A DNA stretch of 64,000 nt. It comes from an uncultured bacterium. Lineage in GTDB: Bacteria; Hydrothermota; UBA3072. A program made the translations under genes and the position numbers. This document shows positions 18,056 through 63,764 of the stretch, piece after piece. The stretch covers positions 29,237-93,236 of the forward strand of contig CAYQMH010000001.1 in NCBI GenBank assembly GCA_964418485.1, given 5' to 3'. Position 1 is the first letter of the stretch, and the number at the start of each line of letters is the position of its first letter. The notes under the pieces were generated by a model. It saw only the letters and a list, made by a program, of their open reading frames with translations. It was not told the origin of the DNA and searched no databases.

Positions 18056-18257
18056 AACGAACCTCCTTAACTGTTTATATTAAACAAATATAATTAAGAA
18101 GACATAGATGTCAAGGCAAACGTGTGTATTTCTAAATTTTAATTGACTGCCCTCCCAAAATTTTTTCGACAACACATTGAACCTTATTTGTTACAAGCAT
18201 TATAAAAGTTTTTTACGTGATATTACTGTTCGCCAGTATTTGTAGAGTCAGAGGGAT

Positions 18258-18462
18258 TACTGTTCGAGAAAGACGTGGTCAATTTCCAAAAGTAGAGGAA
18301 ATTGCCACTCGGCTCTCGGGCTTGTCCCGTGGAATAGAAAAACTATTCGTGAGGTAAGCTATTCCACGGGATGAACTCCTTTTGAAATGCAAGCATTTCA
18401 AAAGACCATGCCCGCTCACCCTCCGAGACGCTTTCCTGGACGGCAATCCCTCTGATTCTCGC
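18258..18462. repeat. Single copies of repeat units A (ctgttcgagaaagacgtggtcaatttcc) and B (ccatgcccgctc...cgagac...tcc) also found in tandem at 28018-28440
   Basis: There is a direct sequence match to the 28.0-28.4 kb array. The region also contains palindromes cccgtggaatag...ctattccacggg and ttttgaaatgcaagcatttcaaaa. Confidence 0.6.
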
Positions 18463-18600
18463 CGACTTAATTAATAAAAAAAATGGGGGGCAGGCAAATA
18501 AATTTTAAGTCTTGACAAGCTCGGGTTGATGTCTACACTTTATAATAGTTAAAGAAAGATTATTTTCGTTGCTTGTGCTTCGGATTTTAAAGGAGTGAAA

Positions 18601-20304
18601 ATGAAAGATATTTCAATTGTTTTGTGCGGTGAAGCCGGTCAGGGTATTCAAACTGTAGAGAAGATACTCGTTTCTGTACTTAAACGTTCAGGTTATTTTG
18701 TTTTTGCCGCGAGAGAGTTTATGTCCAGAATAAGAGGAGGAAGTAACTCTACCGAGATTAGAGTATCCGATAAGCCCGTTAATTCCTTTGTTGAAAAAAT
18801 AGATGTTTTGATTCCGCTGGACGGGAAAGCGGTCGACCATGTAAAGTGGAGAATAGGCGAGAATACGATAATACTCGGTAAAAAGGAATTTATACAAGGT
18901 AAATCTGGAAAGACATTTGAGGTTCCTTTTATCGAGTTGGCAAAAGAAGCAGGTAATAAGCTTTACGCGAATACCGTCACGGTGGGACTTCTTTCCGGTA
19001 TGCTCAGCGTAGATTTCTCGCATACGAAAGATTTTATAAGCGATTTTTTCAAGAAAAAGGGCAAGGAAATCATTAAGGGGAATGTCGAAGCTGCTAAAAA
19101 AGGCTATGAAATAGCAGAAAAACTGGTTAAAGAGAATAAGATTGACTTCAAGATAAAAAAGAATGAAAAGGCAAAGGATAATTCGCTTGTAAGCGGTACC
19201 GATCTGGTCTCCTTAGGGGCAATAGCTGGGGGGTGCAATTTTATTTCTTCCTATCCGATGTCTCCTTCGACCGGAGTCCTCACCTTTCTTTCATCCAAGC
19301 AGGAAGAGTTTGGGATAATAGCCGAACAGGCGGAAAGCGAGATATCCGCTATTAATATGGTGCTGGGAGCAAGTTACGCGGGAGCAAGAGGAATGGTAAC
19401 TACCTCAGGAGGCGGTTTTGCTTTGATGGTCGAGGGATTAAGTCTTGCCGGGATACTTGAAACTCCGGTAGTGATACATCTTGCGCAGAGACCGGGTCCG
19501 GCGACCGGTCTTCCTACGAGGAGTGAACAGGGTGATTTGCTTTTTGCCCTTTTTTCCGGGCATGGAGAATTTCCGAGGATAATTTTTGCTCCCGGCAAAA
19601 CGGAAGACATTTTTAATCTCAGCAGGATAGCTTTTGACCTGGCGGATAAGTTTCAAGTTCCGGTTATTATAATGACCGACCAGTATCTCCTTGATTCTTC
19701 TTTTTTAACTCCTTCGATCGATGTATCGAAGTATAAGAATAAAAAATACATAGTTAAAACGTATAAAGGTTATAAACGTTATAAGTTAACAAAGAACGGA
19801 ATAAGCCCCAGAGGTATTCCGGGTTACGGTAGGGGATTAGTGGTTGTGGATAGCGACGAGCACGACGAAGAAGGACATATAACCGAAGACCTCGATTTTA
19901 GAATAAAAATAGTGGATAAGAGACTTAAAAAAATGGATTTAATTAAGAAAGAGATAGAATCTCCGGAGTTAATCGGGAATAAAAATTATAAAACACTTGT
20001 GATAGGATGGGGCTCCACGTATTACGGAATAAGTGAAGCTTTAAAACGACTCGACGACAGAGATATCGCACTCCTGCATTACAGGCAGGTTTATCCCCTG
20101 CATCCTGATACTGAAAAATATCTTGCCAAGGCGAAAAAAACGATTATTGTCGAAAACAATGCCACCTCTCAGTTTGCCAGACTAATTAAGATGGAAACCG
20201 GAATACATATAGATAAATCGATATTAAAGTACAACGGGCTGCCTTTTGGTGTGGAGGAAATCGTGAAGGAAGTTCGAAAAATCGAGAAAAAGGAGGTTGG
20301 ATGA
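18601..20304 (+). CDS. 2-oxoacid:ferredoxin oxidoreductase, fused gamma-alpha subunit (two-subunit OFOR type)
   Basis: The N-terminus is gamma-domain-like ([15 protein letters not shown]), followed by an alpha domain ([16 protein letters not shown]). RBS aaaggag precedes the ATG at 18601. Confidence 0.85.
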
Positions 20305-21167
20305 TGGACACGAAAATCTTTGACATGGGTAAGATAGATATAGCATGGTGTCCCGGCTGCGGGAATTTCAGCATCCTTAAGATATTAAAAGATACGTTAT
20401 CGGACCTGGATATAAAACCTGAAGGACTGGTTATGGTTTCGGGGATAGGCCAGGCGGCAAAAATACCTCATTACTTAAAAGCGAATGCATTCAACGGTTT
20501 ACATGGCAGGGCTCTTCCTCCTGCAACCGCGATAAAGGCTGTAAACAGGAAGTTGGTTGTAATCGCGGAGAGCGGTGACGGCGATATGTACGGCGAAGGC
20601 GGCAATCATTTCCTGCACACAATAAGAAGGAACCCGGATATTACGAATATCGTTCACAACAATATGGTATACGGACTTACCAAAGGCCAGGCGTCTCCTA
20701 CAAGCATGCAGGGTTTTAAAACACCGGTTCAGCCGGGCGGAGTCATTCTTGAACCTTTTAATCCGCTGGCTGTCGCGATCGGTCTGGGTGCTTCTTTTGT
20801 ATCGCGCGCCTATTCGGATGATATCAAAGAGACTAAGGAGATAATAAAAAAAGCAATAAAGCATAAGGGATATGCGCTTGTCGATTTACTTCATCCCTGC
20901 GTAACGTTTAACAAGTTTAATAACAGAAAATGGTTTAAAGAACATACTTATTATTTGAAAGAAGAGCATGACCCAACCGACAGGAATAAAGCTTTCAAGA
21001 AGGCAACGGAAATTGATAAACTTGCCCTTGGTGTGTTTTATATAAATAAAGCCAATAAGCCTTTCGAAGAAAAGCTGGTTGCTTATAGAAAGAATAAGAA
21101 ACCTATGTTTGAAAGAGAAGTAGATTTTGAGAAATTGGAAAATTTGATAGAATCAAAAAAGGGTTAA
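20301..21167 (+). CDS. 2-oxoacid:ferredoxin oxidoreductase beta subunit (TPP-binding)
   Basis: CPGCG near the N-terminus and the SGDGD TPP motif are present. It overlaps the alpha gene by 4 nt. Confidence 0.85.
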
Positions 21168-23973: not shown

Positions 23974-24039
23974 TTTTCCAAACTTACCATACTAAAGTGA
24001 TTGCCTATGTCAAGACGGCAACCCACCCCACACCAAATA

Positions 24040-24260
24040 TTAACCACAGAGGACACAGAGAAAAACAAACCCTCAGAGACCACAGAGAAAAACAACAAAT
24101 TATTTTTTTAATTAAAAACCCCAACCCCTCCAAAAAATAGAAACAACGAATTACACGAATAGCACGAATATCGAAAAGAAAAAAACTGATTTATTTGTGC
24201 AATTTGTTGTTAAAAAACGGGTGGTGCGGGTTCTTTATTTTTCCTATTCGACAATTTAAC
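24040..24260. repeat. Copy of dispersed composite intergenic repeat (CACAGAG heptads, C-rich complement of G tract, TTCGTG heptads)
   Basis: ccacagaggacacagagaaaaacaa...aaaccccaacccctcc...acgaattacacgaatagcacgaa is closely similar to 33228-33330. Its reverse complement is similar to 34490-34570. Confidence 0.65.
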
Positions 24261-25543: not shown

Positions 25544-25633
25544 GATTAATAGATATGAAAATAAATTATGAATCTTTATTCCGGATTTTTAGATTTCAAT
25601 TGTCTTGTGTATTCGCAGACGGGGGTTTTAAAA

Positions 25634-27949
25634 ATGAAAAATTCGAGAATTTTCAACGGGTTTTTTCTTTTGTTGGTTTTATGGTTGCCTGTAATATTGC
25701 AGGCAGAATTAAAAAAGGATTTAAGTTTACTTAGGCCTCCGATGGATGAGTTTATAGATTCTTTAATGGTGAAAATGACGCTTGAAGAAAAGTTGGGTCA
25801 GCTGGCTCAATATACAGGTGGCTTGCATAATGCGCTCAACTCCATGGTGGATGACAAGCTTAAAGATATGATAAGGAGGGGTAAGGTTAGTTCTTTATTG
25901 CATGTATTGGGTGCCGATTTTCTTGGTGGCTTGCAGAAAATAGCTGTCGAAGAATCGCGTCTTGGAATACCCTTAATATTTGGTCTCGATGTTGTTCACG
26001 GATTTAAAACAATTTTCCCCGTTCCTCTTGCGTCTGCCTGCAGTTTTGAACCGGAAGCTGTACAGCGAACAGCAAGAATTGCGGCAGTTGAAGCTGCGGC
26101 TTCGGGTGTACACTGGACTTTTGCTCCTATGGTCGATATTACTCTCGACCCAAGATGGGGAAGGATAGTGGAAGGAGTGGGGGAGGACCCTTATCTGGGT
26201 ACTGTTATGGCAAAGGCGCAGGTCGAGGGTTACCAGGGAGATGATTTGAGTTTTGCAAATACAATTCTTGCATGTCCGAAACATTATGTCGCCTATGGTG
26301 CGGCTTGTGGCGGAAGGGATTATGATAGTACAGAAGTTTCGCTGCGAACACTTAATGATGTGTATTTGCCGCCTTTTCTTGCAGCAATTAAGGCTGGAGC
26401 CGGGTCGATTATGAATGGATATAACGATATTAACGGAGAACCCATGTCTGCGAACAAAGAGCTTTTAACTGATGTGCTTAGAAAAAAATGGGGTTTTGGT
26501 GGTTTTGTTGTTAGTGATTGGGATTCAATCGGAGAATTGATAAATCATGGTGTTGCGAAGGATAGATTGGAGGCAGGTAAGAAGGCGTTATCTGCTGGGA
26601 TAGATATGGATATGAAGAGTGGAATATTTGGCGAAGATATGTTGGAGGCCGTAAAGAAAGGGGAGATACCGGAAGAATTAGTGGATAAAGCGGTCAGAAG
26701 AATTCTTGAGGCTAAATACAAATTGGGACTTTTCGATGACCCGTTTAAGTATTGTGATCCGGAGGTCGAAAAAGCTGAGATTTTAAAAGAAGAGCATATT
26801 AAGGCAGCAAGAGATATGGCATGCAAATCCATTGTATTATTAAAAAATGAAGATAATGTTCTTCCTTTGAAAAAGGATTTGAAAAAGATTGCTGTTATCG
26901 GGCCTCTTGCGGACGATTCGAGAGCGCCTCTTGGTTTGTGGAAAGCTGTTGGTGAAGAAAAGGATGTTGTGACCGTATTAGAAGGTATAAAAAATATAGT
27001 TTCTGAAGGGACAGAAATTCTTTATGCTAAAGGCTGTGAAGTAAATGGAGATGATGAAAGCTTATTTACGGAAGCTGTTTCTTTGGCTGTAAGGTCAGAT
27101 ATTGTTGTGCTGGTTCTGGGAGAATCCGCTAATATGAGCGGAGAAGCTAGAAGCCGCTCGGAAATCGATCTTCCAGGTGTTCAGAAGAAACTTGCTAAGG
27201 AAATTGTAAATACGGGAACTAAAGTGGTAGCTGTGCTTTTGAATGGAAGACCGCTTGCGACTTCCTTTTTGAGTGAAAATATTCCGGCGATTCTGGAAAC
27301 CTGGTTTTTAGGTATTCAGTCTGGTAACGCTATCGCCGATGTTTTGTTCGGCGATTATAATCCCGGAGGTAAACTTGCCGTAACTATACCGCGGAGCGTG
27401 GGTCGGATTCCCTCTTTTTATTATCACAGAAATACCGGTAAGCCGGCTTCTGAGGAAAATCTATTTACTTCCCGGTATATTGATTTACCTCTTACTCCTT
27501 TGTATCCATTCGGACATGGCTTAAGTTATACGGATTTCAAATACTCGAAATTAAAAATAAAAAATAAAAAAGTAGAAGCAGGTGACTCATTAGAGTTGAG
27601 TTTCTCTCTTAAGAACACGGGAAAAGTTTTTGGAAGCGAAGTTATTCAGTTGTATATCAAGGATGTGGTCGCAAGTGTAGCTCCGCCGGTTAAAAAATTG
27701 GTAGGCTTTAAGAGGATATATCTGGAAGGTGGGGAGGAAGTAAAAGTTAGTATGAAAATGCCCGTGAATCTTCTTGCTTTTTATAATAAAGATATGAAAA
27801 AAGTCGTGGAGCTGGGAGAGATTAAGTTAATGATTGGCAGTTCTTCCGAGGATATACGGCTCGACGGATCTTTCACGATTGCAGGGGAAGAAACCGAAGT
27901 AAGCGAGACAGAAGTTTACTATACTGAAGTCGAAGTAAACATGGATTAG
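25634..27949 (+). CDS. GH3 beta-glucosidase (BglX-like, secreted)
   Basis: A signal peptide (MKNSRIFNGFFLLLVLWLPVILQA) is followed by GH3 N- and C-terminal domains (...VSDWDSIGEL...). RBS ggggg precedes the ATG at 25634. Confidence 0.85.
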   Translation: MKNSRIFNGFFLLLVLWLPVILQAELKKDLSLLRPPMDEFIDSLMVKMTLEEKLGQLAQYTGGLHNALNSMVDDKLKDMIRRGKVSSLLHVLGADFLGGLQKIAVEESRLGIPLIFGLDVVHGFKTIFPVPLASACSFEPEAVQRTARIAAVEAAASGVHWTFAPMVDITLDPRWGRIVEGVGEDPYLGTVMAKAQVEGYQGDDLSFANTILACPKHYVAYGAACGGRDYDSTEVSLRTLNDVYLPPFLAAIKAGAGSIMNGYNDINGEPMSANKELLTDVLRKKWGFGGFVVSDWDSIGELINHGVAKDRLEAGKKALSAGIDMDMKSGIFGEDMLEAVKKGEIPEELVDKAVRRILEAKYKLGLFDDPFKYCDPEVEKAEILKEEHIKAARDMACKSIVLLKNEDNVLPLKKDLKKIAVIGPLADDSRAPLGLWKAVGEEKDVVTVLEGIKNIVSEGTEILYAKGCEVNGDDESLFTEAVSLAVRSDIVVLVLGESANMSGEARSRSEIDLPGVQKKLAKEIVNTGTKVVAVLLNGRPLATSFLSENIPAILETWFLGIQSGNAIADVLFGDYNPGGKLAVTIPRSVGRIPSFYYHRNTGKPASEENLFTSRYIDLPLTPLYPFGHGLSYTDFKYSKLKIKNKKVEAGDSLELSFSLKNTGKVFGSEVIQLYIKDVVASVAPPVKKLVGFKRIYLEGGEEVKVSMKMPVNLLAFYNKDMKKVVELGEIKLMIGSSSEDIRLDGSFTIAGEETEVSETEVYYTEVEVNMD

Positions 27950-28017
27950 CAGGTAGCTGGTTTCAGTTTTTGTTTTTTAAGTTTCGAGTTAATAACCTTT
28001 CCAGCTTTAGGCGTTTG

Positions 28018-28440
28018 GGATAACACTTTCGAAAAACCACAGTCAGTTTCCCCTGCGGTTTATTTCACAAGGAGTGCTGTTCGAGAAAGACGTGGTCAAT
28101 TTCCCCTGCGGTTTTATTCGCAAGGAGTACTGTTCGAGAAAACCAGAGTCAATTCTCCCAGCGAGAGAATTGCTCTTTACCTCTCGCTCTCACTCTTTTC
28201 GATTTTTGTAAAATCGAAAAACCGTGCCCGTTCGAGCTCCGAGATATTTTCCTGAACAGTACCCCTTACTCATTGGGCTGTTTTTGTCAAAAGTCCATGC
28301 CCGCTCGGTCTGCGAGACATTTTTTATGAAAGGCATCCCTGAACTTTTAATATTTTAAGAAAATAAAAAGGATAGTGTGCCCGCTCGGTCTGCGAGATAT
28401 TTTTCTTGAGCGGTATCCCTCACTCTTGGGTTTTAAACAA
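28018..28440. repeat. Tandem array: 3 copies of ~53-bp unit A then 3 copies of ~70-bp unit B
   Basis: Unit A is ctgttcgagaaa(g/a)ac..gtcaattt(c)ccc(tgcgg) x3 at about 28018-28180. Unit B is (c)gtgcccg(c/t)tcg...cgaga(t/c)attt...tccct x3 at about 28223-28440. Units are 70-85% identical, not CRISPR-like. Confidence 0.7.
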
Positions 28441-28530
28441 CAAAAAAATCTCTGTGCTCTCTGTGTGTTTGTTTTTTCTCTGTGTGCTCTGTGGTTTAAA
28501 AAATCGAGGTTGGGGTTGCCCTCTTGACAA
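28440..28530. repeat. Copy of composite repeat (CTCTGTG heptads + GGTTGGGGTTGCCCTCTTGACA end)
   Basis: aaatctctgtgctctctgtgtg...ctctgtgtgctctgtgg...gaggttggggttgccctcTTGACAaag, with the -35-like box at the 3' end. Confidence 0.6.
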
Positions 28531-28586
28531 AGTTGGTTTTAGTGTTACCTTTTATTAAAAAGTAACACTTGTTAAAGGGGGTATTA

Positions 28587-30374
28587 ATGGTTTTGTTTTT
28601 GGTGTATATTTTGGCGATTGTTGATTCTTCGGAATCTGTTATGGATACTTCGTATACTAAAATGTATTTTTCAGAAGGTGTAGTAGTTACCGCGAGCAGA
28701 TACGAGGATGAGGTTTCCGATATCTCAACGTCTGTTTCCGTAATTACCGAAAAGGATATAAAATTTGTAAATTCTTATATAGCTCCCGATTTGCTTTCTG
28801 ATGTTCCCGGTGTGGAAGTTATGAAAACGGGCAATTTTGGAAGAGCTGATGTAGTAATAAGAGGGATCGGAAATAATGGGAGGAAGCTTGGTTTCCTTGT
28901 CGACGGAAGACCGGAAAAGATGGCTATATATGGTTGTGCGGTAACCCATACGTTTCCTCTTCATAATGTAAAAAAAATAGAGGTTGTTAAGGGTCCCCTT
29001 TCTTCTTTGTACGGTTCCGGGGCTATGGGGGGTGTTGTCAATATTTTAACCAGGCAGCCCAGCGGTGGTGATAAGCTGAATTTCGAGTGTGATTACGGAA
29101 GTTACAATACTTACAATTTAACTGGTTCTTTCGAGGAATCTTTCTCTAAAATAGATTTTTTGGGTACAGTGCAAAAGAATTCATCCGATGGCTACCAGGA
29201 GAATTCGGCTTCGAGTACTGATGCTTATCAGGGTAATTTAGTATACAATATTAATGGAGATTGGAGAATTGAAAATTATGCCAAGTACGTGGAGGCATAT
29301 AAGCAGGATCCGGCAACCGTAGGAGATACCTCTACTCCTGAAGGCTATCAGAACTACGAAAGAGGAGCTTTTGATGTTTCTGTGTATGGGTATATGGATA
29401 AAATCGATTTTCAAACAAAAATCTACAGGACTTATGGTTATCATGAATTTTCTGACGGATGGGAGTCGAGGGATAGAACCGACGGTTTGAGTCCTTCGGT
29501 TAGATTATCTTTTTTAAAAGGAAATGAGACTCAAGGCGGCTTTGAATTTTATAAACAATACGGGAACTGGATTTCTACTGATAGAAAGTGGGATAGGGCA
29601 GTATATGAAGGATTTATTCATACGCAGCAGAAAACCTCGTTTGTTAATCTTTCGGGAGGGGTAAGATATACTTATGTAAGCGATTCGGAAGGGGTTTTTT
29701 CATACGATGGTGGAATTGTTATTAAATATAATAACACAAGGATTCGGGGTAGAATAGGCAAAGGCTTTAGACTCCCTTCTTTTAATGATCTCTATCTTTT
29801 TTCTTCCTCGAATCCTTCTCTCGTGGCGGAAGAACTGTGGGATTACGAAATCGGTTTAAGGCAAAAATTGTCTGATATCATGGACCTCGATTTTGCTCTA
29901 TACCGTATGAATACAAACAATTTCATCAGATTCTCTCCTACAAGTGGTCAATTTGAAAATATAGATACATTGATTGAGAAAGGGCTGGAAACTTCTATCG
30001 GTATATATCCCGTTGATTGGTTGAAGCTTAAAGTATTTTATTCTTATATCGACAGGGAGGATAGAACGCAAGGCGTTCCCGGTCAGAAGTTCAGCGGAAG
30101 TATTACTTTCGAGAGGGATATTTTAGAAGCAAGGTTGAGCGGAAGATATTTGACCGATTATTACGCTGCTGACAATCATTTAGAAGAAATCCCTTCCTAT
30201 TATGTTTTTGATTTCCGTTTAAATGTTAAACCTAAGGATTATGTGTCTTTGTCTTTAGGTATCGACAATATACTTGATGAGTACTATGAGCGGTATGTTG
30301 AAGTGCCTAATGCCACAGGTTTGTATAGCATGCCCGGTAGGACTTTTAAGATGGGAATTGCTCTGGAAAAATGA
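28587..30374 (+). CDS. TonB-dependent outer-membrane receptor (BtuB/CirA-like)
   Basis: A plug domain (VVTASRYEDEVSDISTSVSVITEKDI...VPGVEV...VVIRGIG) is followed by a ~500-aa beta-barrel region. RBS aagggggt precedes the ATG at 28587. Confidence 0.75.
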   Translation: MVLFLVYILAIVDSSESVMDTSYTKMYFSEGVVVTASRYEDEVSDISTSVSVITEKDIKFVNSYIAPDLLSDVPGVEVMKTGNFGRADVVIRGIGNNGRKLGFLVDGRPEKMAIYGCAVTHTFPLHNVKKIEVVKGPLSSLYGSGAMGGVVNILTRQPSGGDKLNFECDYGSYNTYNLTGSFEESFSKIDFLGTVQKNSSDGYQENSASSTDAYQGNLVYNINGDWRIENYAKYVEAYKQDPATVGDTSTPEGYQNYERGAFDVSVYGYMDKIDFQTKIYRTYGYHEFSDGWESRDRTDGLSPSVRLSFLKGNETQGGFEFYKQYGNWISTDRKWDRAVYEGFIHTQQKTSFVNLSGGVRYTYVSDSEGVFSYDGGIVIKYNNTRIRGRIGKGFRLPSFNDLYLFSSSNPSLVAEELWDYEIGLRQKLSDIMDLDFALYRMNTNNFIRFSPTSGQFENIDTLIEKGLETSIGIYPVDWLKLKVFYSYIDREDRTQGVPGQKFSGSITFERDILEARLSGRYLTDYYAADNHLEEIPSYYVFDFRLNVKPKDYVSLSLGIDNILDEYYERYVEVPNATGLYSMPGRTFKMGIALEK

Positions 30375-31141
30375 ATCTACTTTTTCTGATTTTAAGTATG
30401 GGAATAGTTACCTCGACAACCGATATATCTTCTGTTGTGGAGGCTATTGCTCCCGATGACGCTAAAGTGGTTAGCATTGTGTCCGGTGGAATGTGTCCCG
30501 GGCATTTTGATCTCTCTCCGGCTGAAGCTAATTTGATTTTTTTATCAGACTTAATTATTTATCACGGCTACGAATCATGGTTTGCGAAAGTGGAAAAATT
30601 AAAGCTCGATATCGATATAGTGGATTTAGAGACCGATGGTAGTTGGATGATTCCGGATATATATCTAAAAGGAGCTTTAGAGATTTACAATATTTTAAAA
30701 AAGGAATACGGTTCTGATAGTGTTAGTATCAGAAAAATCGATAAAAAGTACGAAAAATTTAAAATGAGTGTGGATACACTTTCTAATATAGTTGCAAAGA
30801 AGAAAGAATCGATTAAAGGAATTAAAGTTATTTGTAATGAACATCAGAAGGATTTTCTTCTTTTTCTCGGCGCGGAAGTTGTTGCCGTTTTTTCTCCGGG
30901 AGACGATATTTCTCTTAAAGAAATATCGGAGATAGTAAAAGTCGGAAAAGACGAAAACGTGCAGTTAGTTGTGGATAATCTTCAAAGCGGTAAAAAAGTC
31001 GGTAGCACGATAGCGGATGAATTAAAAAGTGCTTATATAATTTTTTCTAATTTTCCGGAAGAACAGGGATATAAGGTAACTCTTTTAAATAATATAGATC
31101 TCTTGCTGGAGATCATAAGTGATAAAAATACAAAAAGTTAG
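30371..31141 (+). CDS. Metal ABC transporter substrate-binding protein (TroA/ZnuA-like, cluster A-I), short form
   Basis: The 256-aa ORF has a signal/lipobox-like N-terminus and an HGYESW...LLFLGAEV pattern. It overlaps the upstream gene by 4 nt. Confidence 0.65.
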   Translation: MNLLFLILSMGIVTSTTDISSVVEAIAPDDAKVVSIVSGGMCPGHFDLSPAEANLIFLSDLIIYHGYESWFAKVEKLKLDIDIVDLETDGSWMIPDIYLKGALEIYNILKKEYGSDSVSIRKIDKKYEKFKMSVDTLSNIVAKKKESIKGIKVICNEHQKDFLLFLGAEVVAVFSPGDDISLKEISEIVKVGKDENVQLVVDNLQSGKKVGSTIADELKSAYIIFSNFPEEQGYKVTLLNNIDLLLEIISDKNTKS

Positions 31142-31874
31142 TAAATCCTTTAGTGGCAAAAAAGTTTTATCTGAGATTTCTCTCGATATAAAAAAGCAGG
31201 ATTTTGTTGCGATAATAGGTCCAAACGGAGCAGGAAAGACGTGCCTGCTTAGAATAATAAACGGGCTTTTTATTCCTGATGAGGGAAAAATTAGAGTATT
31301 TGACCTTGATCCGGTTAAAAATGGTCTATTTGTAAGAAAAAAAATTGGTTTTATTTTTCAAAATGAGTTTATAACCAGAGATGTGCCTCTTTCGGTTAAT
31401 GATGTTGTTTCTGTGGGGAGGGTAGGGGTAAAAGGGCTTTTTAAAAATCTTGATAAAGAAGATTTTGAATCCGTTCGAAATGCTATGGACGAGGTTGGAA
31501 TAAGCGATCTGGTGAATAGACCTGCGGGTTTTCTTTCGGGAGGAGAGCAGAGAAAGGTGTCGATTGCGCGAGAATTGGCAAGAGATGTCGAAATTCTTCT
31601 TCTTGATGAGATTTTAATGAATTTAGACCCTGCTTCACAAATGGAAATTAATAATTTAATTACTCGTATTTACGAAAAACATAAATTGACAGTTGTTTTC
31701 GTAACTCATCTTCTAAGGTATTTACCGGAAGGTATTAATAGAGTTGTGGCTCTTAAGAATGGAAAAGTGTTCAGTGATTTTTCGAACCAAGATTTTAATT
31801 CAAAGGATTTATCTCGACTTTATGATGTCGATGAGGAAAATTTGAAGAAATATGTGGGAAATTTTAAGTTATAG
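31119..31874 (+). CDS. Metal ABC transporter ATP-binding protein (ZnuC/MntB-like)
   Basis: It has Walker A GPNGAGKT, signature LSGGEQRK and Walker B LLLDE. Confidence 0.85.
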   Translation: MIKIQKVSKSFSGKKVLSEISLDIKKQDFVAIIGPNGAGKTCLLRIINGLFIPDEGKIRVFDLDPVKNGLFVRKKIGFIFQNEFITRDVPLSVNDVVSVGRVGVKGLFKNLDKEDFESVRNAMDEVGISDLVNRPAGFLSGGEQRKVSIARELARDVEILLLDEILMNLDPASQMEINNLITRIYEKHKLTVVFVTHLLRYLPEGINRVVALKNGKVFSDFSNQDFNSKDLSRLYDVDEENLKKYVGNFKL

Positions 31875-32658
31875 TTATTTTCAAAATGCGCTCTTGGGTT
31901 CTATTCTTGCCGGGATAGGTCTCGGTATTGTAGGTGTATGGGTAGTTCTCCTCCGGATTCCCTTTGTGGGAGTCGCCATATCTCATGCCGCTTTTGCCGG
32001 GTCCGTAATTGGACTTCTCTTTGGAGTAGATCCTGTTTTGATGGCAATAGTATTTTCTTTGCTTGCTTCGATTTTAATAGGGCCTATTGCGGAAAAATCC
32101 GGTCTCGAAGCAAACGTGATAATCGGTATTATTTTTTCTCTTGTTTTGGGAATCGCTTTTCTCGGACTTGGTTTGATAAAGGGTCCCAAAACAGAAGCAT
32201 TCAATCTTATCTGGGGAAGTATTCTTACTCTTTCAAGAGTAAATATATATTTGAACGCCGGAATAACTTTTTTTGTGATTCTTTTCCTGCTTTTTTTCGG
32301 AAAAGAAATAAAAGCGGTATTTTATAATAGAGAAGTCGCGGCTTCGTGCGGAATACCCGAGAAGTTTATTTTTTTTAGTCTGCTTTTCCTGTCCGGATTT
32401 GTAATTTGTCTTAATTTGAATACAATCGGAGGAATATTAATTTTCAGTCTTTTGATAAATCCTCCTTCGGCCGCGAGAATTCTGACTCACAGTCTTTCTA
32501 AAATGTATCTTCTATCGATTCTTTTTGGTATTATCGCCTGCCTATCGGGACTTTTCTTTTCTTATGTGTTTTCTGTCCCTGCCGGGGCCACAATAATAAT
32601 CGTTTCTTCGCTTATTTTTATAATTTCAATGGTTTTAAGAGGTGGAAATGGAAGTTGA
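31852..32658 (+). CDS. Metal ABC transporter permease (ABC-3 family, ZnuB-like)
   Basis: The 268-aa protein has about 8 TM segments with ABC-3 topology. It overlaps the ATPase gene. Confidence 0.8.
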   Translation: MWEILSYSYFQNALLGSILAGIGLGIVGVWVVLLRIPFVGVAISHAAFAGSVIGLLFGVDPVLMAIVFSLLASILIGPIAEKSGLEANVIIGIIFSLVLGIAFLGLGLIKGPKTEAFNLIWGSILTLSRVNIYLNAGITFFVILFLLFFGKEIKAVFYNREVAASCGIPEKFIFFSLLFLSGFVICLNLNTIGGILIFSLLINPPSAARILTHSLSKMYLLSILFGIIACLSGLFFSYVFSVPAGATIIIVSSLIFIISMVLRGGNGS

Positions 32659-33217: not shown

Positions 33218-33224
33218 GATTAGC

Positions 33225-33465
33225 CACGAAGACACTAAGACACGAAGAAAAAACAACAAAATTAGTATTGTTGATTAAACCCCTCAACCCCACCAAAGAA
33301 TAGAAACAACGAATCACACGAATAGCGCAAATTTCTTTTAATTTAACTCGAAACACGAAACCCAAAACTCGAAACTTTATAATTTCACACAAAGTCACAA
33401 AGGACACAAAGTTTTTATTTATTTTTTTTGACTAGTGACCAGTGACTGGTGACTGATGACTACTT
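33225..33465. repeat. Copy of composite repeat (CACGAAG/CACAAAG heptads + C-rich tract) plus GTGACCAGTGACTGGTGAC motif
   Basis: gccacgaagacactaagacacgaag...aacccctcaaccccacc...cacacgaatagcgcaaat...cacaaagtcacaaaggacacaaag...gactagtgaccagtgactggtgactgatgact. Confidence 0.6.
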
Positions 33466-34299: not shown

Positions 34300-34640
34300 A
34301 ATGAATTCATTCTCTTAAGTCAATGGTATTTTTGGCTACGAATAGCCACGAAGGCACTAAGATACAAAGAAAGAAACAACAAGAAAATATTATTTTTTAT
34401 AATTTCCACACCCATCCCAAAAGAGAGTAACAACAAATAGCACAAATTACACAAATGTATTGATAATGAGCATTTTTTATATAAGAATGAATCTTTTTCG
34501 TTTTATTCGTGCTATTCGTGTAATTCGTTGTTTCTATTTTGGGGAAGGGTTGAGGGTTTTAATCGGAAATATAAATTTTGTTGTTTTTCTTTGCGTTCTT
34601 TGTGGGCTTTGTGGTTCAATGATTTTTTTATATTGCTTGA
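34300..34640. repeat. Two adjacent copies of composite repeat
   Basis: The first copy is 34325-34440 (cacgaaggcactaagatacaaag...cccatcccaaaag...). The second is 34490-34625 (ttcgtgctattcgtgtaattcgttg...ggggaagggttgagggttttaa...ctttgtgggctttgtgg). Confidence 0.65.
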
Positions 34641-48357: not shown

Positions 48358-50256
48358 ATGCTTTTATTTGTGCTTTCGTTTGCTTATTTATGGATATATG
48401 AAGGAGATTCTCTTTTTAATGGTCTTTCGGAAGGAACTGTGATCACGAGAGATTCGGTTTTTGTGGGGAATGAGATAGAGGAATTTTCGTGGGAAAGCAG
48501 CGGTTTTGTTTCCGATATAGTCAGGGTAGGTGATGATATATATTTTAGCGTATCCGATGCTGGCATAATTGTAAGAATGCGAGATGACGGAAAAACAGAT
48601 ACAGTTTTGACTCGTGAAGGAAATTTGGTTTCTCTGGGAAAAAAGGGGAACGTTCTTCTGGCAGGGTTATCTCCCGCAGGGAAACTTTTTTTCATAAAAG
48701 ATTCAAAAATTGTGGACTCTTTGGATGCTCCTTCAGATAATGTTTACTGTATGTTCGAATTCGCAGGGCTTTTCTTAATCGGTACCGGTCCCGAAGGCAA
48801 AGTTTATAAGCTTGCCGGAGACAAAGAGTTTGAAGAATATTTTAAAACACAAGCGGCTTCTGTTACCAGATGGCTGGTGAAGGATAAGAACCTCTTTTTG
48901 GGAACAAGTAATCCCGGACTTATATACAGGATAGATAAAAATAATGAGGGGAAAATTTATTATGATCCCGGGTTCGAGGAGGTAAACGGCCTCGGTTACT
49001 GTGGAGATACTTTATGCATTTCCGGATTGTTGCCCGGGCAGGGTGAGTCCGTAGGGGGTATTAAGTTTTATCTGAAGAATAGAGAATATGAAGTTTATAT
49101 GGGTACTCCTATATTATGTGGAGAGGTGGCTAATCTGAAGTTTTATGCCGGAGAATCTGAAGATGGTCAGTTAGGAGAGTTTCACCGCAGTGGTTTTAAT
49201 ATAGTTGCCGATCTGGACGAACCAAAAGTGACTGCACTTCAAGAGATTGATAATGATATTTGGATTGGTTCCGGTTATCCTGCCAAGGTTTATAAATTAA
49301 CCGGGAAAAGATTGAAAGAAGGAGAATATATTTCTTCTGTATTTAAGGGAGGCGTTTCTGTTATATGGGGGAATCTCGACTACGAAGGTAAGGGAGATAT
49401 AGATTTTTTTATAAGAGGAGGAAAGAAAGAAGAAGTGGATTCTTCATGGAGTAAATGGGAAAGCATCGATAAGCATATAGAATTGGAAGAGCCTTTCATA
49501 CAGTGGAAAGCAGTTTTAAAACAAGATAAAGCTTATCTGAAAGGGGTTCGTGTTTCCTATGGAAAACAAAATTCTCCTCCGAGTATACGGGAGATTAAGG
49601 TTTTGCCCCCAAAGATAGGTGCTGGTAAGATGGATGAAGGTTCTACTATTATGGGTCCTATTCCACCGGAGGATAAGGAGCGACTTAGAAGTATGGGATT
49701 CTATATTCCGGAAGATGCCTATGTTATTGGAGAAGGTCTTCGCTGTATATACTGGCAGGCAGATGATCCCGATAATGATCAACTGGTCTTCGATGTTTAT
49801 GTTTCTCGAGATTCGAAAAGTTGGGATGAAATGGAACTTGGTTTATCCGGAAACAGCTATTTTATTAATACTTCTGCCTATCCTGACGGTTATTATTATA
49901 TTAAGTTGATTGCGAGGGACGACCTGGATCAGCCAAATTCTCTTAAGACGGAAAAGAAAGTTTCTTTTTTGGTCGATCATACCCCTCCGACTTTTAAGGA
50001 AATAGAAAAAAAATCCATTCGAGACAGCGTTCTTGTGAGTGGGACTGTAACGGATGAACTTTCATCTATTATCAGTGTTATGTATAGTACTGCGGAGACG
50101 CAGAAAACGCTTTGGAAGAGAGCACGGGCGGAAGATGAACTATTTGATGAGAAAGAAGAAAAGTTTTCCTTTAAGGTTGATAAAAAAGAAAAGTACGGTG
50201 CTATAAGAGTCGTTGATAGAAATGATAATAGCAGAGTTGTAAGAATCGAATTTTAG
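48358..50256 (+). CDS. Hypothetical large exported protein (beta-propeller-like repeats + C-terminal beta-sandwich region)
   Basis: The start at 48358 follows the RBS aggagataaa and is translationally coupled to the upstream gene. It has a hydrophobic N-terminus. No catalytic motifs were found. Confidence 0.5.
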   Translation: MLLFVLSFAYLWIYEGDSLFNGLSEGTVITRDSVFVGNEIEEFSWESSGFVSDIVRVGDDIYFSVSDAGIIVRMRDDGKTDTVLTREGNLVSLGKKGNVLLAGLSPAGKLFFIKDSKIVDSLDAPSDNVYCMFEFAGLFLIGTGPEGKVYKLAGDKEFEEYFKTQAASVTRWLVKDKNLFLGTSNPGLIYRIDKNNEGKIYYDPGFEEVNGLGYCGDTLCISGLLPGQGESVGGIKFYLKNREYEVYMGTPILCGEVANLKFYAGESEDGQLGEFHRSGFNIVADLDEPKVTALQEIDNDIWIGSGYPAKVYKLTGKRLKEGEYISSVFKGGVSVIWGNLDYEGKGDIDFFIRGGKKEEVDSSWSKWESIDKHIELEEPFIQWKAVLKQDKAYLKGVRVSYGKQNSPPSIREIKVLPPKIGAGKMDEGSTIMGPIPPEDKERLRSMGFYIPEDAYVIGEGLRCIYWQADDPDNDQLVFDVYVSRDSKSWDEMELGLSGNSYFINTSAYPDGYYYIKLIARDDLDQPNSLKTEKKVSFLVDHTPPTFKEIEKKSIRDSVLVSGTVTDELSSIISVMYSTAETQKTLWKRARAEDELFDEKEEKFSFKVDKKEKYGAIRVVDRNDNSRVVRIEF

Positions 50257-50261
50257 AAAAA

Positions 50262-50586
50262 ATTAAAAAACATTAAACACAGAGGACACAAAGAAATAAT
50301 TGTGTTAAAAAAGAAAAAAACACTGAGACCACAGAGAAAAAAAGAAATAAAAAATCTATGTTCTCTGTGGTGAAATATTATGGTGGGGTGTTGTGTGAGC
50401 TCTGTGCTCTCTGTATTTTGATTTGGGTGAGGAGTGGTGGGTTAAACAAAATAAAACTCTGTGTTCTCTGTGGTAAAATATTATGGTGGGGGGTTGGGTG
50501 GGCTCTGTGCTCTCCGTGTTTTCGTCGGGGTGGTGTGTGTTTTGGAAAAACAAAACAAAAATCTCTGTGTGCTCTGTGGTAAAAAA
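50262..50586. repeat. Largest composite-repeat array: ~3 tandem ~90-bp units (CTCTGTG(T)TCTCTGTGGTAAAATATTATGGTGGGGGGTTGGGTGGG...)
   Basis: Units at about 50340-50420, 50420-50500 and 50500-50586 are 80-90% identical to each other and to 61795-61890. Confidence 0.7.
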
Positions 50587-50587
50587 T

Positions 50588-51145
50588 ATGGGGAAATTTC
50601 TTTTTAAATATAGATCCTTTTTTCCGGTTCCGTATTTTTTGTTTTTATTAATTGTTATAGAATTCAGATCCTTGAGTTTCTTTCTGGGTAGTTTTATAGT
50701 TCTTTTAGGCCTTCTAATACGTTTCTTTTCGCAAGGATTCGCGGGTGATTGGATGAGAGGAAGTGAAGTTGGGGCTTTCTATATGCTTGATGAGGGAGTC
50801 TATAGTATTATGCGCAATCCTTTATACGTGGGTAATTTTTTTATCGGGTTTGGTTTTACTTTAGCTTCTAATTTTTTTCTTATTTTTCTTTTTCCTTTTT
50901 ATTCGCTTATATTCTCAATATACTATTATTTGATTATCAAAGAGGAAGAAAGTTATCTTGAGAGGAAATTCGGAGAAGAGTTTATTCAGTATCGCAAAAG
51001 CACACCTGCTTTCCTTCCGAATTTTCGCAAATGGAAAACAGGGCAATTTTTGAGTAGAAATGCCCTGCGTATGGAGAGTAGTACTTACCTTACGGTTGGT
51101 TTTATTTTTGTTTTGTTTTTGATTAAAGTTTATATTTTTGATTGA
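50588..51145 (+). CDS. Isoprenylcysteine carboxyl methyltransferase (ICMT)/phospholipid methyltransferase-family membrane protein
   Basis: The 185-aa polytopic protein has the RNPLY motif and C-terminal EE..L...FG.EF..Y pattern of the ICMT/PEMT family. The ORF-track N-terminal extension (GTG at 50483) reads through the repeat. Confidence 0.6.
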   Translation: MGKFLFKYRSFFPVPYFLFLLIVIEFRSLSFFLGSFIVLLGLLIRFFSQGFAGDWMRGSEVGAFYMLDEGVYSIMRNPLYVGNFFIGFGFTLASNFFLIFLFPFYSLIFSIYYYLIIKEEESYLERKFGEEFIQYRKSTPAFLPNFRKWKTGQFLSRNALRMESSTYLTVGFIFVLFLIKVYIFD

Positions 51146-51179: not shown

Positions 51180-52601
51180 TCACTGAAGAATGATAGCTTT
51201 CTTCCTGTATATATTATCTCCTATCTCTACTCTGACAAAGTAAATGCCGTTCTTTCCATTCCACTGGAGATTATAGCTGCCGGAAGGTCTGACTTCATTC
51301 ATTATCTTTTCCATTCTCTGCCCAAGAATGTTAAATATTTCCACCTTTACTCTTTTTTCTTCCAGAAGAGAAAAATTAATATTAATTCCGGAATTTATGT
51401 TAATAAGGGAAACTCCTTCCTCTAAAATTTCATTTTCATCATCTTCTGAACTACCGGTATATTTGATGATATAAAGACCATCGTCCCTATCCGCAACGTA
51501 GGCGAGGCTGTCGACAACGTAGGCACCGGAGGCCTCACTCCCCGTATCATAATACCCAATCTCGACCGGGCTTGTCGGGTCACTCACGTCAATGATACGT
51601 AAACCATTGAAACCGGCTGCAACGTAGGCGAGGCTGTCGACAACATAAACACCTGAGGCTTCAATCTCTGTATCATAGATACCAATCCAAAACGGGCTTG
51701 TTGGGTCACTCACGTCTATGATATGTAGACCATTGGAAGAAGCTGCAACGTAGGCGAGACTGTCGACAACGTAAACACCCTTGGCCCAAATTCCCGGATC
51801 ATAGTACCCAATTTCAACCGGATTTGAAGGGTCACTCACGTTTATGATACGTAGACCATCTGAGTTATCCGCAACGTAGGCGAGGCTGTCGACAACGTAA
51901 ACATCTTGGGCCCAACTCTCCGTATCATAATACCCAATCTCAACGGGGCTTGTCGGGTCACTTACGTCTATGATACGCAGACCATCTAAACCGGCTGCAA
52001 CGTAGGCGAGGCTGTCGATAACGTAAACGTCGGAGGTGGTGCTTCCCGTATAATAGTGGCTAATCTCAATTGGGCTTGTAGGGTCACTTACGTCTATGAT
52101 ATAAAGACCATCCCGGAAATCAGCAACATAGGCGAGACTGTCGACAGCGTAAACACCGTAGGACCAATACCCAATATCATAGTAGCCAATCTCGACCGGA
52201 CTTGTCGGATTACTCACGTCAATGATACGTAGACCATCCCAGTAACTCGCAACATAGGCGAGGCTGTCGATGACGTAGATATCCATAACTTGAGATGGAC
52301 ATCTAATTTTACCAATAGTGGTGGGATTTGAAGGGTTAGTTACGTTAAGTATCCTCAGATAGCCTCCATCTCCTATGAACACAAGACTGTCAATTGTAAA
52401 TACAGCTTCAGATGGACCGCTGAACCATCCACCTACAAGAGTACAGTCCAATGAATCACCCCTGAAGTTTTCACGGGTCCAATTCTCATTCACAGGTCTT
52501 CTATCTAACTCAATCTTTCTGTGAGATGTTTGGGCAAATAAACTGACAGTCCCGAAAAATATTAATAATACAACAATTGTATTTTGAATTAAGCGTCTCA
52601 T
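51180..52601 (-). CDS. LVIVD-repeat beta-propeller protein with T9SS C-terminal sorting domain
   Basis: It has a signal peptide and about 9 tandem ~40-aa repeats (DSLAYVA...DGLRIIDVSDPTSPVEIGYYDT). The C-terminal tail is Por-secretion-like (...GIYFVRVEIGDNIYRKKAIILQ). Confidence 0.75.
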   Translation of the reverse strand: MRRLIQNTIVVLLIFFGTVSLFAQTSHRKIELDRRPVNENWTRENFRGDSLDCTLVGGWFSGPSEAVFTIDSLVFIGDGGYLRILNVTNPSNPTTIGKIRCPSQVMDIYVIDSLAYVASYWDGLRIIDVSNPTSPVEIGYYDIGYWSYGVYAVDSLAYVADFRDGLYIIDVSDPTSPIEISHYYTGSTTSDVYVIDSLAYVAAGLDGLRIIDVSDPTSPVEIGYYDTESWAQDVYVVDSLAYVADNSDGLRIINVSDPSNPVEIGYYDPGIWAKGVYVVDSLAYVAASSNGLHIIDVSDPTSPFWIGIYDTEIEASGVYVVDSLAYVAAGFNGLRIIDVSDPTSPVEIGYYDTGSEASGAYVVDSLAYVADRDDGLYIIKYTGSSEDDENEILEEGVSLININSGININFSLLEEKRVKVEIFNILGQRMEKIMNEVRPSGSYNLQWNGKNGIYFVRVEIGDNIYRKKAIILQ

Positions 52602-58299: not shown

Positions 58300-58433
58300 T
58301 CCGCTAACCGCCGAGGCTGTGCCAAAACCCCCCTTTTCGCAAGTTGCAGAAAACTAAGTTCCTGTTTTTCAAAGGCTTATTTTTTAGAAATCCGTTAAAT
58401 TTGGACTTTTGGCACAGCCTCAGCTGTCAGCGG
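58300..58433. other. Large imperfect hairpin: 27-bp stem (ccgctaaccgccgaggctgtgccaaaa / ttttggcacagcctcagctgtcagcgg) with ~80-nt loop, downstream of hppA
   Basis: The inverted repeat is readable directly, with 23 of 27 positions complementary. GC is higher than in the flanks. Confidence 0.5.
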
Positions 58434-61734: not shown

Positions 61735-61930
61735 TATGGTTTCGGGTTTTGAGTTTCGTGTTTCGAGTTGAAAAATAAACAAAAAGGAGGGGTTGTGGGG
61801 TGTAGCTCTGTGCTCTCTGTATTTAAATTGGGGTAATGGGGTTGTGAGTAAACAAAATAAAAATCTCTGTGTCCTCTGTGGTTAATTGTTTTTGTTCTTT
61901 GTGCCTTTGTGTCTTTGTGGTTAAATACAC
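61735..61930. repeat. Copy of composite repeat, ~85% identical over ~85 bp to 50400-50485
   Basis: tagctctgtgctctctgtatttaaattggggtaatggggttgtgagtaaacaaaataaaaatctctgtgtcctctgtggttaa...ctttgtgcctttgtgtctttgtgg. Confidence 0.7.
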
Positions 61931-61984: not shown

Positions 61985-63760
61985 ATGTACAGAACAATTA
62001 TAATATTTTTAATATCCTTTGTTTTATTCGCAGAAGAGCCGGCTGTTTCTCCGCCTGTTTTATTGCAAGTCGAGGATTTTGGGGCTGTTAGCGATGATAA
62101 AATTTTGGATACAGAAGCTGTAAATAAGGCAATCGATTCCTGTTCTGCTCTTATTAACGGAACAGTTGTTTTTTCTAAGGGAACGTATCTATGCGGATCC
62201 ATTCGTTTGAAAAGCAATGTGGCGCTTCAAGTCGAAAAAGAAGCGAAAATACAGGCTGCCCCAAAGGGCATTGGGGCTTTCGATCCTCCTGGAGATAATT
62301 TATGGTATAAGTATCAGGATTTCGGGCAGAGTCATTTCCATAACGCTCTTGTTTGGGGAGATAGTGTTGAAAATATAACTATAAAAGGAGAAGGTGTAAT
62401 AAGCGGAACCGCATCTCTTTATAGGAACTCCGGAACCGGAGAAGGCGATAAGGCTATTTCGCTTAAGTTATGCAAAAATGTTGAAATAAAGGATATACTT
62501 ATCACCGACGGTGGATATTTGGCCATTCTGGCTACGAGATGTGATAGTATAAATATACATGATGTGAAAGTAAAAACCGGGATGAATGGTATAAGCCTTG
62601 TAGGTAGTAATAATGTTGAGTTGAAAAATTGTGAAGTGGAAGCTGGCAATGATGGAATTTCACTTAAATCAGATTATTCTTTAGGTCGCAAGCTAAATAG
62701 TAAAGATATTGAAATAAATAGTTGTGTAATTTCCGCGGGTGGTAATGCCTTGCAGCTTGGTCCGGAAACGGTCGGTGATTTTAAAAATGTGCAGATTTTA
62801 AATATCACAATAGAAAGAGCTGGTAATGTGGGTATAAGTGTTACTTCAAGTCATGGGGCTGTAGTTGACGGGGTTAATATTCAAAATGTTACTATGGAGA
62901 GTGTTGCTGTTCCTTTCTTTATTAATCTATCTAAAATTACAGGTGGATCTACTGATTCTCCCACCTTTGGTGATATTAGAAATCTCAGAATAAGTAATGT
63001 TGTTGTTAGAGATGCTTATGGCTACGGCAGTGGATGGGATTTTGCCAGTACAATTATGGGGAAATCCGGCAGGATGCTTGAGAATATTGTTCTCGAAAAC
63101 ATGAGAATGACTTACAAAGGAGGAGATTTGTCTTACCTTGGATTACAGGAAGATCCTGCTAAAATAAATCTTCCTGAAATAGAAGATTACAGGGCGGAGA
63201 GATATGGTCTCAGGCCGGCTTACGGCCTCTATTGCCGCCATATAAAGGACTTGAAAATACGAAATGTTTCCGTCGATTTCGAAGAAGAACACTCCAGACC
63301 GGCGATGATTTTGTCGGATATCGAAGGGGCGGTGATAAATCGATTTTATGCGGAAAGGTCGGCTATCAGAAATTATGATATAATCTTAGATAATGTTAGT
63401 GATTTTATGATAACCGGAAGTCCCGGGGTAGTGTACATAGAGAAAGAGGATTTTGTTCCTTTAGATAGTTTTAATGTTTCCGCTTTGCCTAATCCTAATT
63501 CGCAAGAAGTAGCCGCAAAACTTGGGGCTGGTATCCCGCCGACTTTGCTTTCGGATTTACCTATTGAGGTGATTGAAAAAATAAAGAAAGAGCTTGGAAT
63601 ACCTCCTACGATGCTAAGGGTTTTAGTGGGCGGGCAGATTGAAAAGGAAGAGAAAGGCGGAAAAGTTGTATATAATATCGAGGCCGAAAATACAAAAGGC
63701 GAAAAATACAGACTTAAAATTCAGAAAGACGGGAGCTTGTTGAGTAAGGAAAAAATTTAA
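61985..63760 (+). CDS. GH28-like (polygalacturonase/rhamnogalacturonase-type) parallel beta-helix glycoside hydrolase with extra C-terminal domain
   Basis: It has a signal peptide and a QVEDFGAVSDDKILDTEAVNKAID N-terminus typical of GH28. Beta-helix repeat motifs (NCEVEAGNDGISLKS, GGNALQLG) are present. RBS aaaggaggg precedes the ATG at 61985. Confidence 0.6.
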   Translation: MYRTIIIFLISFVLFAEEPAVSPPVLLQVEDFGAVSDDKILDTEAVNKAIDSCSALINGTVVFSKGTYLCGSIRLKSNVALQVEKEAKIQAAPKGIGAFDPPGDNLWYKYQDFGQSHFHNALVWGDSVENITIKGEGVISGTASLYRNSGTGEGDKAISLKLCKNVEIKDILITDGGYLAILATRCDSINIHDVKVKTGMNGISLVGSNNVELKNCEVEAGNDGISLKSDYSLGRKLNSKDIEINSCVISAGGNALQLGPETVGDFKNVQILNITIERAGNVGISVTSSHGAVVDGVNIQNVTMESVAVPFFINLSKITGGSTDSPTFGDIRNLRISNVVVRDAYGYGSGWDFASTIMGKSGRMLENIVLENMRMTYKGGDLSYLGLQEDPAKINLPEIEDYRAERYGLRPAYGLYCRHIKDLKIRNVSVDFEEEHSRPAMILSDIEGAVINRFYAERSAIRNYDIILDNVSDFMITGSPGVVYIEKEDFVPLDSFNVSALPNPNSQEVAAKLGAGIPPTLLSDLPIEVIEKIKKELGIPPTMLRVLVGGQIEKEEKGGKVVYNIEAENTKGEKYRLKIQKDGSLLSKEKI

Positions 63761-63764
63761 AAAA

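Follow-up and report, generated by a model that had tools for sequence, protein, structure and literature searches.

The A and B repeats at 28 kb in the window (the whole 64,000-nucleotide stretch of DNA analysed here) are best explained as the two halves of a small hairpin-forming mobile element, with the cluster at 28.0-28.4 kb being the debris round one intact copy, a reading to which we assign a probability of about 0.7. The sequence-only reading of this DNA had treated A and B as separate units. The start of A in the 18-kb copy (TCAGAGGGATTACTGTTCGAGAAAG) is the reverse complement of the end of B (CTTTCCTGGACGGCAATCCCTCTGA), and because the 5' arm of A reverse-complements the 3' arm of B in this way, the two are halves of one palindromic, self-folding element: a non-coding palindrome of ~140-210 nt with A on its 5' side and B on its 3' side. 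The family has a three-way junction that is deeply conserved and covaries, and it also bears clear signs of mobility.

Three A units followed by three B units occupy positions 28017-28425 of the window, and one further A and one further B lie at 18.2-18.5 kb, confirming all positions first given for them. The A pattern CTGTTCGAGAAANNNNNNGTCAATT, with up to 3 mismatches allowed, matched the window at 18260, 28077 and 28130, compared with 0.04 matches expected from shuffles at the same tolerance. The B pattern TGCCCGYTCNNNCTNCGAGA had four exact matches (18409, 28225, 28298 and 28378), and the shuffle expectation was 0.39 even with up to 3 mismatches. Tandem Repeats Finder reported a period of 53 at 28028-28159 (2.5 copies, 80% matches, score 176), and the B starts in the 28-kb cluster are spaced 73 and 80 nt apart. 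Pairwise identity was 78-85% among A units and 72-80% among B units, in agreement with the earlier estimate of 70-85%; with two kinds of unit that are 72-85% identical and with spacers that are not uniform, the cluster is not a CRISPR array, as had also been stated.

The element folds into a terminal stem, P1, that encloses a conserved three-way junction of P2, P3 and P4. P2 is a hairpin with the loop CCNGCGA, P4 is a variable hairpin, and in P3 the strand CUCUCG-NNN pairs with NNN-CUN-CGAGA, which we write as UCUC/GAGA, then G-NNN/NNN-C, then GC/GC. The consensus reads, from 5' to 3', stem, GAAAACACGCUAUC, P2 hairpin with loop CCAGCGA, GCGCUCGCUCUCGGCCUCGCUC, variable P4 hairpin, ACCAUGCCCGCUCGGCCUGCGAGACGGUUUUC and stem, and its ~30 unpaired core nucleotides are nearly invariant between phyla. 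A short internal palindrome, CTCGG..CGAG, had been described in B; the sequence is there, but in complete copies it serves as the 3' strand of P3, whose partner is the distant CUCUCGNNN. The 18-kb unit folds at -103 kcal/mol compared to -60 for shuffled sequence (z = -9.9), forming a long terminal stem around internal hairpins, and at 28 kb A3 and B1 enclose a shorter version of the same fold in which the hairpin sequences differ but complementarity is kept.

A covariance model, R1, was built from a first set of 27 copies from GTDB genomes and found exactly two complete copies in the window, a full-length match at 28127-28266 (116.5 bits, E 8e-28) and one at 18257-18450 (62.8 bits, E 7e-14). 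In the 27 copies, 85.8% of cells were paired, compared to 65% after shuffling and 35-52% when the partners were slid, and 30 of the 37 pairs had changes on both sides. When 94 distinct metagenome copies were aligned to the model, 90.0% of cells were paired (68% shuffled, 40-49% slid) and 34 of the 37 pairs were compensatory. The conserved, covarying fold that the sequence-only reading had proposed looking for across copies is therefore present. The central P3 pair alone occurs in the metagenome set as CG (39), GC (31), UA (11) and AU (3), and at a P3 pair that is G-C in the 26 other sequences of the first alignment the window's 28-kb copy has a compensatory A-U.

Three other interpretations of the sequence were considered and set aside. 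A pseudoknot between AGCGA of the P2 loop and a mid segment UCGCU was rejected on the compensatory A-U of the window copy, which favours the GC/GC pairing with B. The minus strand has some likeness to an HDV ribozyme (GGCAUGGU, CCUCGCUGG), but the fold is a three-way junction rather than a double pseudoknot, and Rfam returned nothing. A protein-coding reading of B (minus strand ..VSQAERAW.., with codon-like variation) was dropped as a general explanation, since P4 is free to vary in length and the majority of copies lie between genes; this frame is nevertheless the one used where the element sits within genes.

The wider search for copies that had been suggested was productive: R1 matched 109 times across 100 metagenome loci and 30 times across GTDB genomes. 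A genome scan with one genome per species returned 116 loci, about three quarters of them chance matches in GC-rich genomes, and sorting by the extended context ACCATGCCCGCTCGNCCTNCGAGA left about 31 true loci. Complete copies occur in Saccharibacteria, Minisyncoccia, Parcubacteria, Brennerbacteria, Spechtbacterales, candidate division WOR-3 and further MAGs, and the units in two MAG loci (L011 and L089) match those of the window almost completely. At the gathering score, Rfam 15 identified no family in the window, and 18 related loci gave tRNA only. At E<=10 the two window loci had only chance matches far under threshold (CRISPR-DR52, drum, speF), and locus L058 had no relevant match. Collections of plasmids and phages gave no match by blastn, and a scan of viral contigs returned 16 chance matches without the element. 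The literal sequence strings of the element were found in no paper, and a keyword search of the literature on structured RNAs of Patescibacteria gave no relevant description. The repeat family is apparently uncatalogued and common to Patescibacteria, WOR-3 and related uncultivated lineages.

The 28-kb cluster lies between a GH3 glycosidase gene (25568-27949) and a TonB-dependent receptor gene (28569-30374), which is followed by genes for ZnuA, an ABC ATPase and an ABC-3 permease (30371-32658). All of its units are on the plus strand. A1 (28017..28058) is an orphan 5' half of type I that retains the P1 5' arm, the P2 5' arm and the loop, with the 3' end ...CCCCTGCGG. It is 78-82% identical to the other A units, its breakpoint in the loop is at the same position as in the A halves of L089, L011, L142 and L197, and its arm is homologous to the inner A of L089. 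A2 (28059..28111), an orphan 5' half of type II, also has the 3' end ...CCCCTGCGG within the P2 loop. Its arm matches B1 best among the three B arms (score 12; A3 scores 15 with B1), and in a plus-strand fold of the entire cluster it pairs with B3.

The complete element, A3 plus core plus B1 (28112..28270), was delimited by R1 and the fold. Its P1 pairs about 28122-28143 with 28246-28268, its P2 hairpin is at 28146-28175 with the loop CCAGCGA, the 5' strand of P3 is at about 28180-28193, the P4 hairpin is at 28194-28222, and the B core is at 28222-28244. B2 (28271..28344), an orphan 3' half of type I, consists of the P4 3' strand GTCAAAAGTCC, then CATGCCCGCTCGGTCTGCGAGA, then the P1 3' arm; it has a partial R1 match at 28269-28316, and the B units of the intact L089 and L011 copies are nearly the same in sequence. 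B3 (28345..28425) is an orphan 3' half with a ~30-nt AT-rich linker, TTTTAATATTTTAAGAAAATAAAAAGGATAG, in front. This linker recurs at unrelated loci, and a homologous linker with its B unit is found in L089 and L147. Just upstream of the cluster, window positions 27975-28016 hold what may be one more 5' half, much decayed (A0, ..AAGTTTCGAGTTAATAACCTTTCCAGC), and then TTTAGGCGTT; in L142 the A0 junction sequence likewise follows a truncated A.

Other loci are organised in the same way. Among the clusters of the metagenome scan in the window's lineage, AB was the commonest complete form (28), followed by AABB (7), AAB (6), ABB (3), ABBBB (2), and AAAAB and AAABBB (1 each). A precedes B in every architecture, and array length differs between orthologous loci. 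Orphan A units all end within the P2 loop, at ...CCCCNGCG(G), in the window, L089, L011, L142 and L197, while orphan B units start with the P4 3' strand or a short AT-rich linker and continue with (C)CATGCCCGC. Two sequence types alternate, and either may sit within the other. The innermost A always fits the first B, and outer halves have weaker partners or none. In four loci (L026, L043, L055 and L088) an enlarged P4 is itself a diverged copy of the element in inverse orientation, scoring 23-49 bits.

These arrangements suggest how the cluster may have arisen. The 28-kb cluster consists of the intact element at 28112-28270 with two 5' halves broken in the P2 loop on one side and two 3' halves broken in the P4 loop on the other. 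New copies would insert preferentially into the hairpin loops of resident copies, and recombination or deletion between nested copies would then remove the P2-3'/P3-5'/P4-5' segment of the older one. Such a deletion would leave stacked halves in unequal numbers, A's on the left and B's on the right. The hairpins would matter as single-stranded DNA during mobilisation by an enzyme supplied in trans.

Copies within genes provide a second sign of mobility. On a Patescibacteria-like contig (L226), an element at 1698-1832 lies in frame within a GT2 glycosyltransferase ORF (365-2074), where its minus strand encodes ..KKSVSEAERAWFPSEARESEAESQ... The insert is present in L226 and L191 and absent from three homologues of 44-50% identity (L220, L088 and L051). 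A second Patescibacteria-like contig (L175) carries an in-frame copy at 2333-2467 within the folD ORF (1904-2845), and the element peptide, from about residue 151, falls between the Pfam stretches at residues 3-111 and 187-310 of FolD. The in-frame copies in GT2 and folD each add ~46 residues (..VSEAERAW..SEAESQ..). At the inspected loci, simple A...B copies, which have a 20-30 bp complementary terminal stem in P1, showed no target-site duplication by eye. No empty site was recovered, because every locus compared had been chosen for carrying the element, and a search for polymorphic arrays via flanking proteins found no identical TonB receptor protein on record.

The 18-kb copy is part of a larger mobile unit. 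Twelve copies of this type at different loci align well past P1, with both ends defined, as a unit of ~300-355 bp bounded by ~20-bp TIRs (CTGCCTACCCCCCAAAATTT ... AAAATGGGGGGCAGGCAA). In the window this unit is a 356-bp MITE (18143..18498, plus strand) with TIRs TTGACTGCCCTCCCAAAATTT ... AAAATGGGGGGCAGGCAA, and in the A...B element inside it (18248..18462, plus strand, delimited by R1 and the fold) the P2 loop is degenerate and an extra hairpin is present at about 18319-18375. The 10-mer TAAATTTTAA stands on both sides of the MITE, at 18133..18142 and 18499..18508, as a target-site duplication. Perfect 10-bp duplications flank three of the five complete copies of the 18k type, namely the window copy, L163 (TTAAACACCA) and L188 (GGCTTCTTCT). 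The search for an autonomous partner, over ~1.7 Mb of loci plus the window, found no ORF-enclosing TIR pair 0.15-4 kb apart and no transposase with matching ends.

The right end of this MITE is closely tied to promoters. TTGAC[AT] begins 5-20 nt past it in 11 of 16 distinct flanks, compared to 2% of random positions; examples are the window (18498-18517), L154, L156, L167, L195, L216, L231, L235, L239 and L248. Since the right ends adjoin TTGAC[AT], the 10-bp target lies just upstream of the -35 boxes of unrelated genes. In the window, the right-hand duplication ends 3 nt before the TTGACA box (18512-18517) of the promoter of the OFOR alpha and beta genes (18595-21167), and the 356-bp MITE would have inserted there with duplication of its 10-bp target. 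A MITE at a nearly fixed distance upstream of -35 boxes is relevant to promoter evolution and to target-site choice.

The extra hairpin, CCCGTGGAATAG...CTATTCCACGGG, splits the core of the window's 18-kb copy at 18319-18375 and is also present in 4 of the 11 other copies of the alignment (L163, L176, L188 and L239). A similar GGAATAG hairpin lies within B cores at other loci (L135, L147 and L157). Hairpins of this type may represent a third mini-palindrome that also lands in loops.

A nearly invariant core and covariation that reaches a long-range helix are traits that characterise functional RNAs more than MITEs. It is possible, if unlikely, that the three-way junction does the work in a so far undescribed class of mobile elements with hairpin loops as targets, which would act via single-stranded DNA or RNA that an enzyme recognises or processes and would have spread through Patescibacteria, WOR-3 and relatives. 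If true, such a class would nest in its own loops and enter essential genes in frame, and one derivative would land 1-5 nt upstream of -35 boxes.

We consider it quite unlikely that the family is instead a structured non-coding RNA (a cis leader, a 3'-UTR element or an sRNA) whose junction binds a ligand or protein and whose arrays offer alternative pairings. The very strong covariation, including the long-range P3 triplet, and the invariant junction nucleotides are what such an RNA would show, and the placement of copies also fits. In Patescibacteria the element usually begins 0-30 nt past the stop codon of a co-directional gene, and in the window's lineage 55 of 70 dereplicated sites have a co-directional gene on the B side (p = 1.7e-6); on the A side the figure is 34 of 67. 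This bias is the main point in favour of a function in cis, and it may also reflect target choice beside promoters or selection against one orientation.

The pairing statistics point away from RNA. Among the 94 metagenome copies, the helices in plus orientation contain 74 G.U and 117 A.C cells, with 2792 of 3186 cells Watson-Crick, and the first set of 27 copies has 20 G.U against 37 A.C, so that there is no G.U excess over A.C for either strand. These family-wide counts also give no support to a plus-strand RNA, an idea suggested by the G.U-compatible mismatches between A2 and B3. The opposite strand folds ~9 kcal/mol better in 30 of 32 copies, as expected because it is G-rich. On neither strand do the helices tolerate wobble pairs as a transcribed structured RNA would, and the near-strict Watson-Crick pairing is consistent with a constraint that acts on hairpins of DNA or on both strands. 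Other evidence against an RNA is the unrelated nature of the neighbouring genes, the lack of an Rfam family, and the in-frame copies, inverse nesting and target-site duplications described above. The 18-kb element also lies outside both predicted transcripts beside it, since the predicted promoters on its two sides (minus strand 18114-18087, plus strand 18512-18539) are divergent.

Mu and Tn7 ends carry several transposase-binding sites, and the stacked A's and B's could in principle be such multi-site ends of one larger transposon. This is very improbable, although A's do lie on one side and B's on the other, inverted through their P1 arms. Only a ~80-nt core without cargo separates the A's from the B's, adjacent units belong to two alternating types with different arms, A and B occur in unequal numbers that change from one orthologous locus to another, and the commonest complete form is the single complete element (28 AB clusters).

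Barely credible, finally, is the proposal of the sequence-only reading that the units are an array of sites for a metal regulator (Zur/Fur type) or other transcription factor controlling the TonB-receptor/ZnuABC and OFOR operons: repeated units do stand upstream of both, but the same units stand beside dozens of unrelated genes, within ORFs, inside one another and in other phyla, and they are hairpin halves of 42-80 nt rather than short dyads. The neighbours include OFOR, glycosyltransferase and FolD genes and many unrelated or unannotated ORFs, and are not restricted to metal homeostasis. This removes a regulatory reading that was tempting but wrong, and if the hairpin-forming mobile element affects the TonB/Znu and OFOR operons at all, it probably does so incidentally. 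Downstream of its TTGACA box (about 28525) and ahead of its ribosome-binding site, the TonB-receptor/ZnuABC operon carries a perfect 8-bp inverted repeat, AGTGTTAC(N13)GTAACACT, at 28541-28548 and 28562-28569, and on sequence grounds this dyad would be a better candidate than the A/B units for the operator of a metal regulator.

As a hairpin-forming mobile element, the A/B family appears to behave like the small non-autonomous bacterial repeats of the MITE, RPE and BOX kind, and a comparison by description sets it apart from them in its covarying junction conserved across phyla and its stacking of half-elements. RPEs are palindromic and are found in frame within unrelated housekeeping genes, to which they add a peptide (PMC10969869). 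The A/B element resembles them as a dispersed non-coding palindrome (~100-150 bp in RPEs) that also occurs in frame in genes, here GT2 and folD. No transposase is known to us for RPEs, and as far as we are aware in-frame palindromic insertion has so far been regarded as a Rickettsia speciality, which the insertions into genes such as folD resemble. Compared by description, the A/B element differs from RPEs in its hosts, which are Patescibacteria, WOR-3 and relatives, in a junction core conserved between phyla, and in copies that stack as half-elements.

BOX elements have terminal boxA and boxC modules around a variable number of tandem modules, with predicted stem-loops, and such composite repeats vary in size between strains, cluster, and insert into each other (PMC3049150; PMC10969869). 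Modularity, variable module number and clustering are shared by BOX, BIME and NIME repeats and by the A/B arrays, which range from AB to AAABBB and ABBBB. In this comparison by description, BOX multiplies its internal boxB, whereas A/B arrays multiply the terminal halves, each on its own side, and the two kinds of repeat would not be expected to be related in sequence. The A/B element is also like REPs and REPINs in being a palindromic extragenic repeat that occurs singly, in doublets and in clusters. REPs are described as 20-40 bp long with a GTAG or CGTC tag (PMC3733652). The A/B element, in contrast, is 140-210 nt long with a three-way junction, and on inspection no GTAG/CGTC tag or RAYT gene was noticed.

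Palindromes derived from IS200/IS605 elements lack a target-site duplication and depend on single-stranded DNA hairpins. Simple A...B copies are similar in having no visible duplication and in having breakpoints at set positions in hairpin loops. The two ends of an IS200/IS605 element bear similar hairpins and lack a long terminal inverted repeat, whereas the A/B element has a terminal stem of 20-30 bp (P1), and its P2 does not resemble the small hairpin in B; we saw no TnpA gene in the loci. Among MITEs with TIRs, Correia elements have been mapped chiefly to sites directly upstream of genes and are able to influence promoters (PMC10969869). Like Correia and Nezha elements, the 18-kb copy has TIRs and a target-site duplication (10 bp here), is non-coding, occurs at many loci and lies upstream of genes, but no parent IS was found for the 18k type in the ~1.7 Mb of loci or the window. 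The simple A...B element, unlike TIR-bearing MITEs, has an outer stem that varies between genomes around a conserved interior, the reverse of a typical MITE. The earlier suggestion of a distinct MITE family therefore holds in the broad sense of a dispersed, non-coding, palindromic mobile family, but not in its view of A and B as independent units.

An identical GH3 gene on a Logan contig (SRR9707468_30133, locus L251) is followed by ~150 nt past the stop codon, where the contig ends. Since this end coincides with the start of the A/B array, it suggests that A/B repeats break short-read assemblies. The repeats also make spurious ORFs and could pass for riboswitches or sRNAs in genome scans.

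Other repeats and structures were observed in and around these loci. Upstream of the orphan A and intact element of L011, positions 1-170 resemble by eye the 3' part of RNase P RNA (..ACAGAATCCGGCTTATAG). Runs of the heptamer CTCTGTG/CTTTGTG lie at 28449-28500 of the window, between the A/B array and the -35 TTGACA box, and are placed alike at unrelated loci (L089 2920-2975, L180, L153, L207 and L228). Heptamer clusters are also found in the window at 24030-24170, 33220-33460, 34340-34630, 50250-50600, 61800-61900 and 63750-64000. A ~130-bp palindromic repeat (..GAGGCTGTGCCAAAA...TTTTGGCACAGCCTC..) at 58301-58433, which lies beside A/B arrays in L152 and L245, is probably another MITE-like family. 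At 51418-52360 the window contains about seven tandem 126-bp units that are 75-81% identical, with superperiods of 252 and 378 nt, and because 126 is a multiple of 3 this stretch is probably the gene of a repeat-domain protein.
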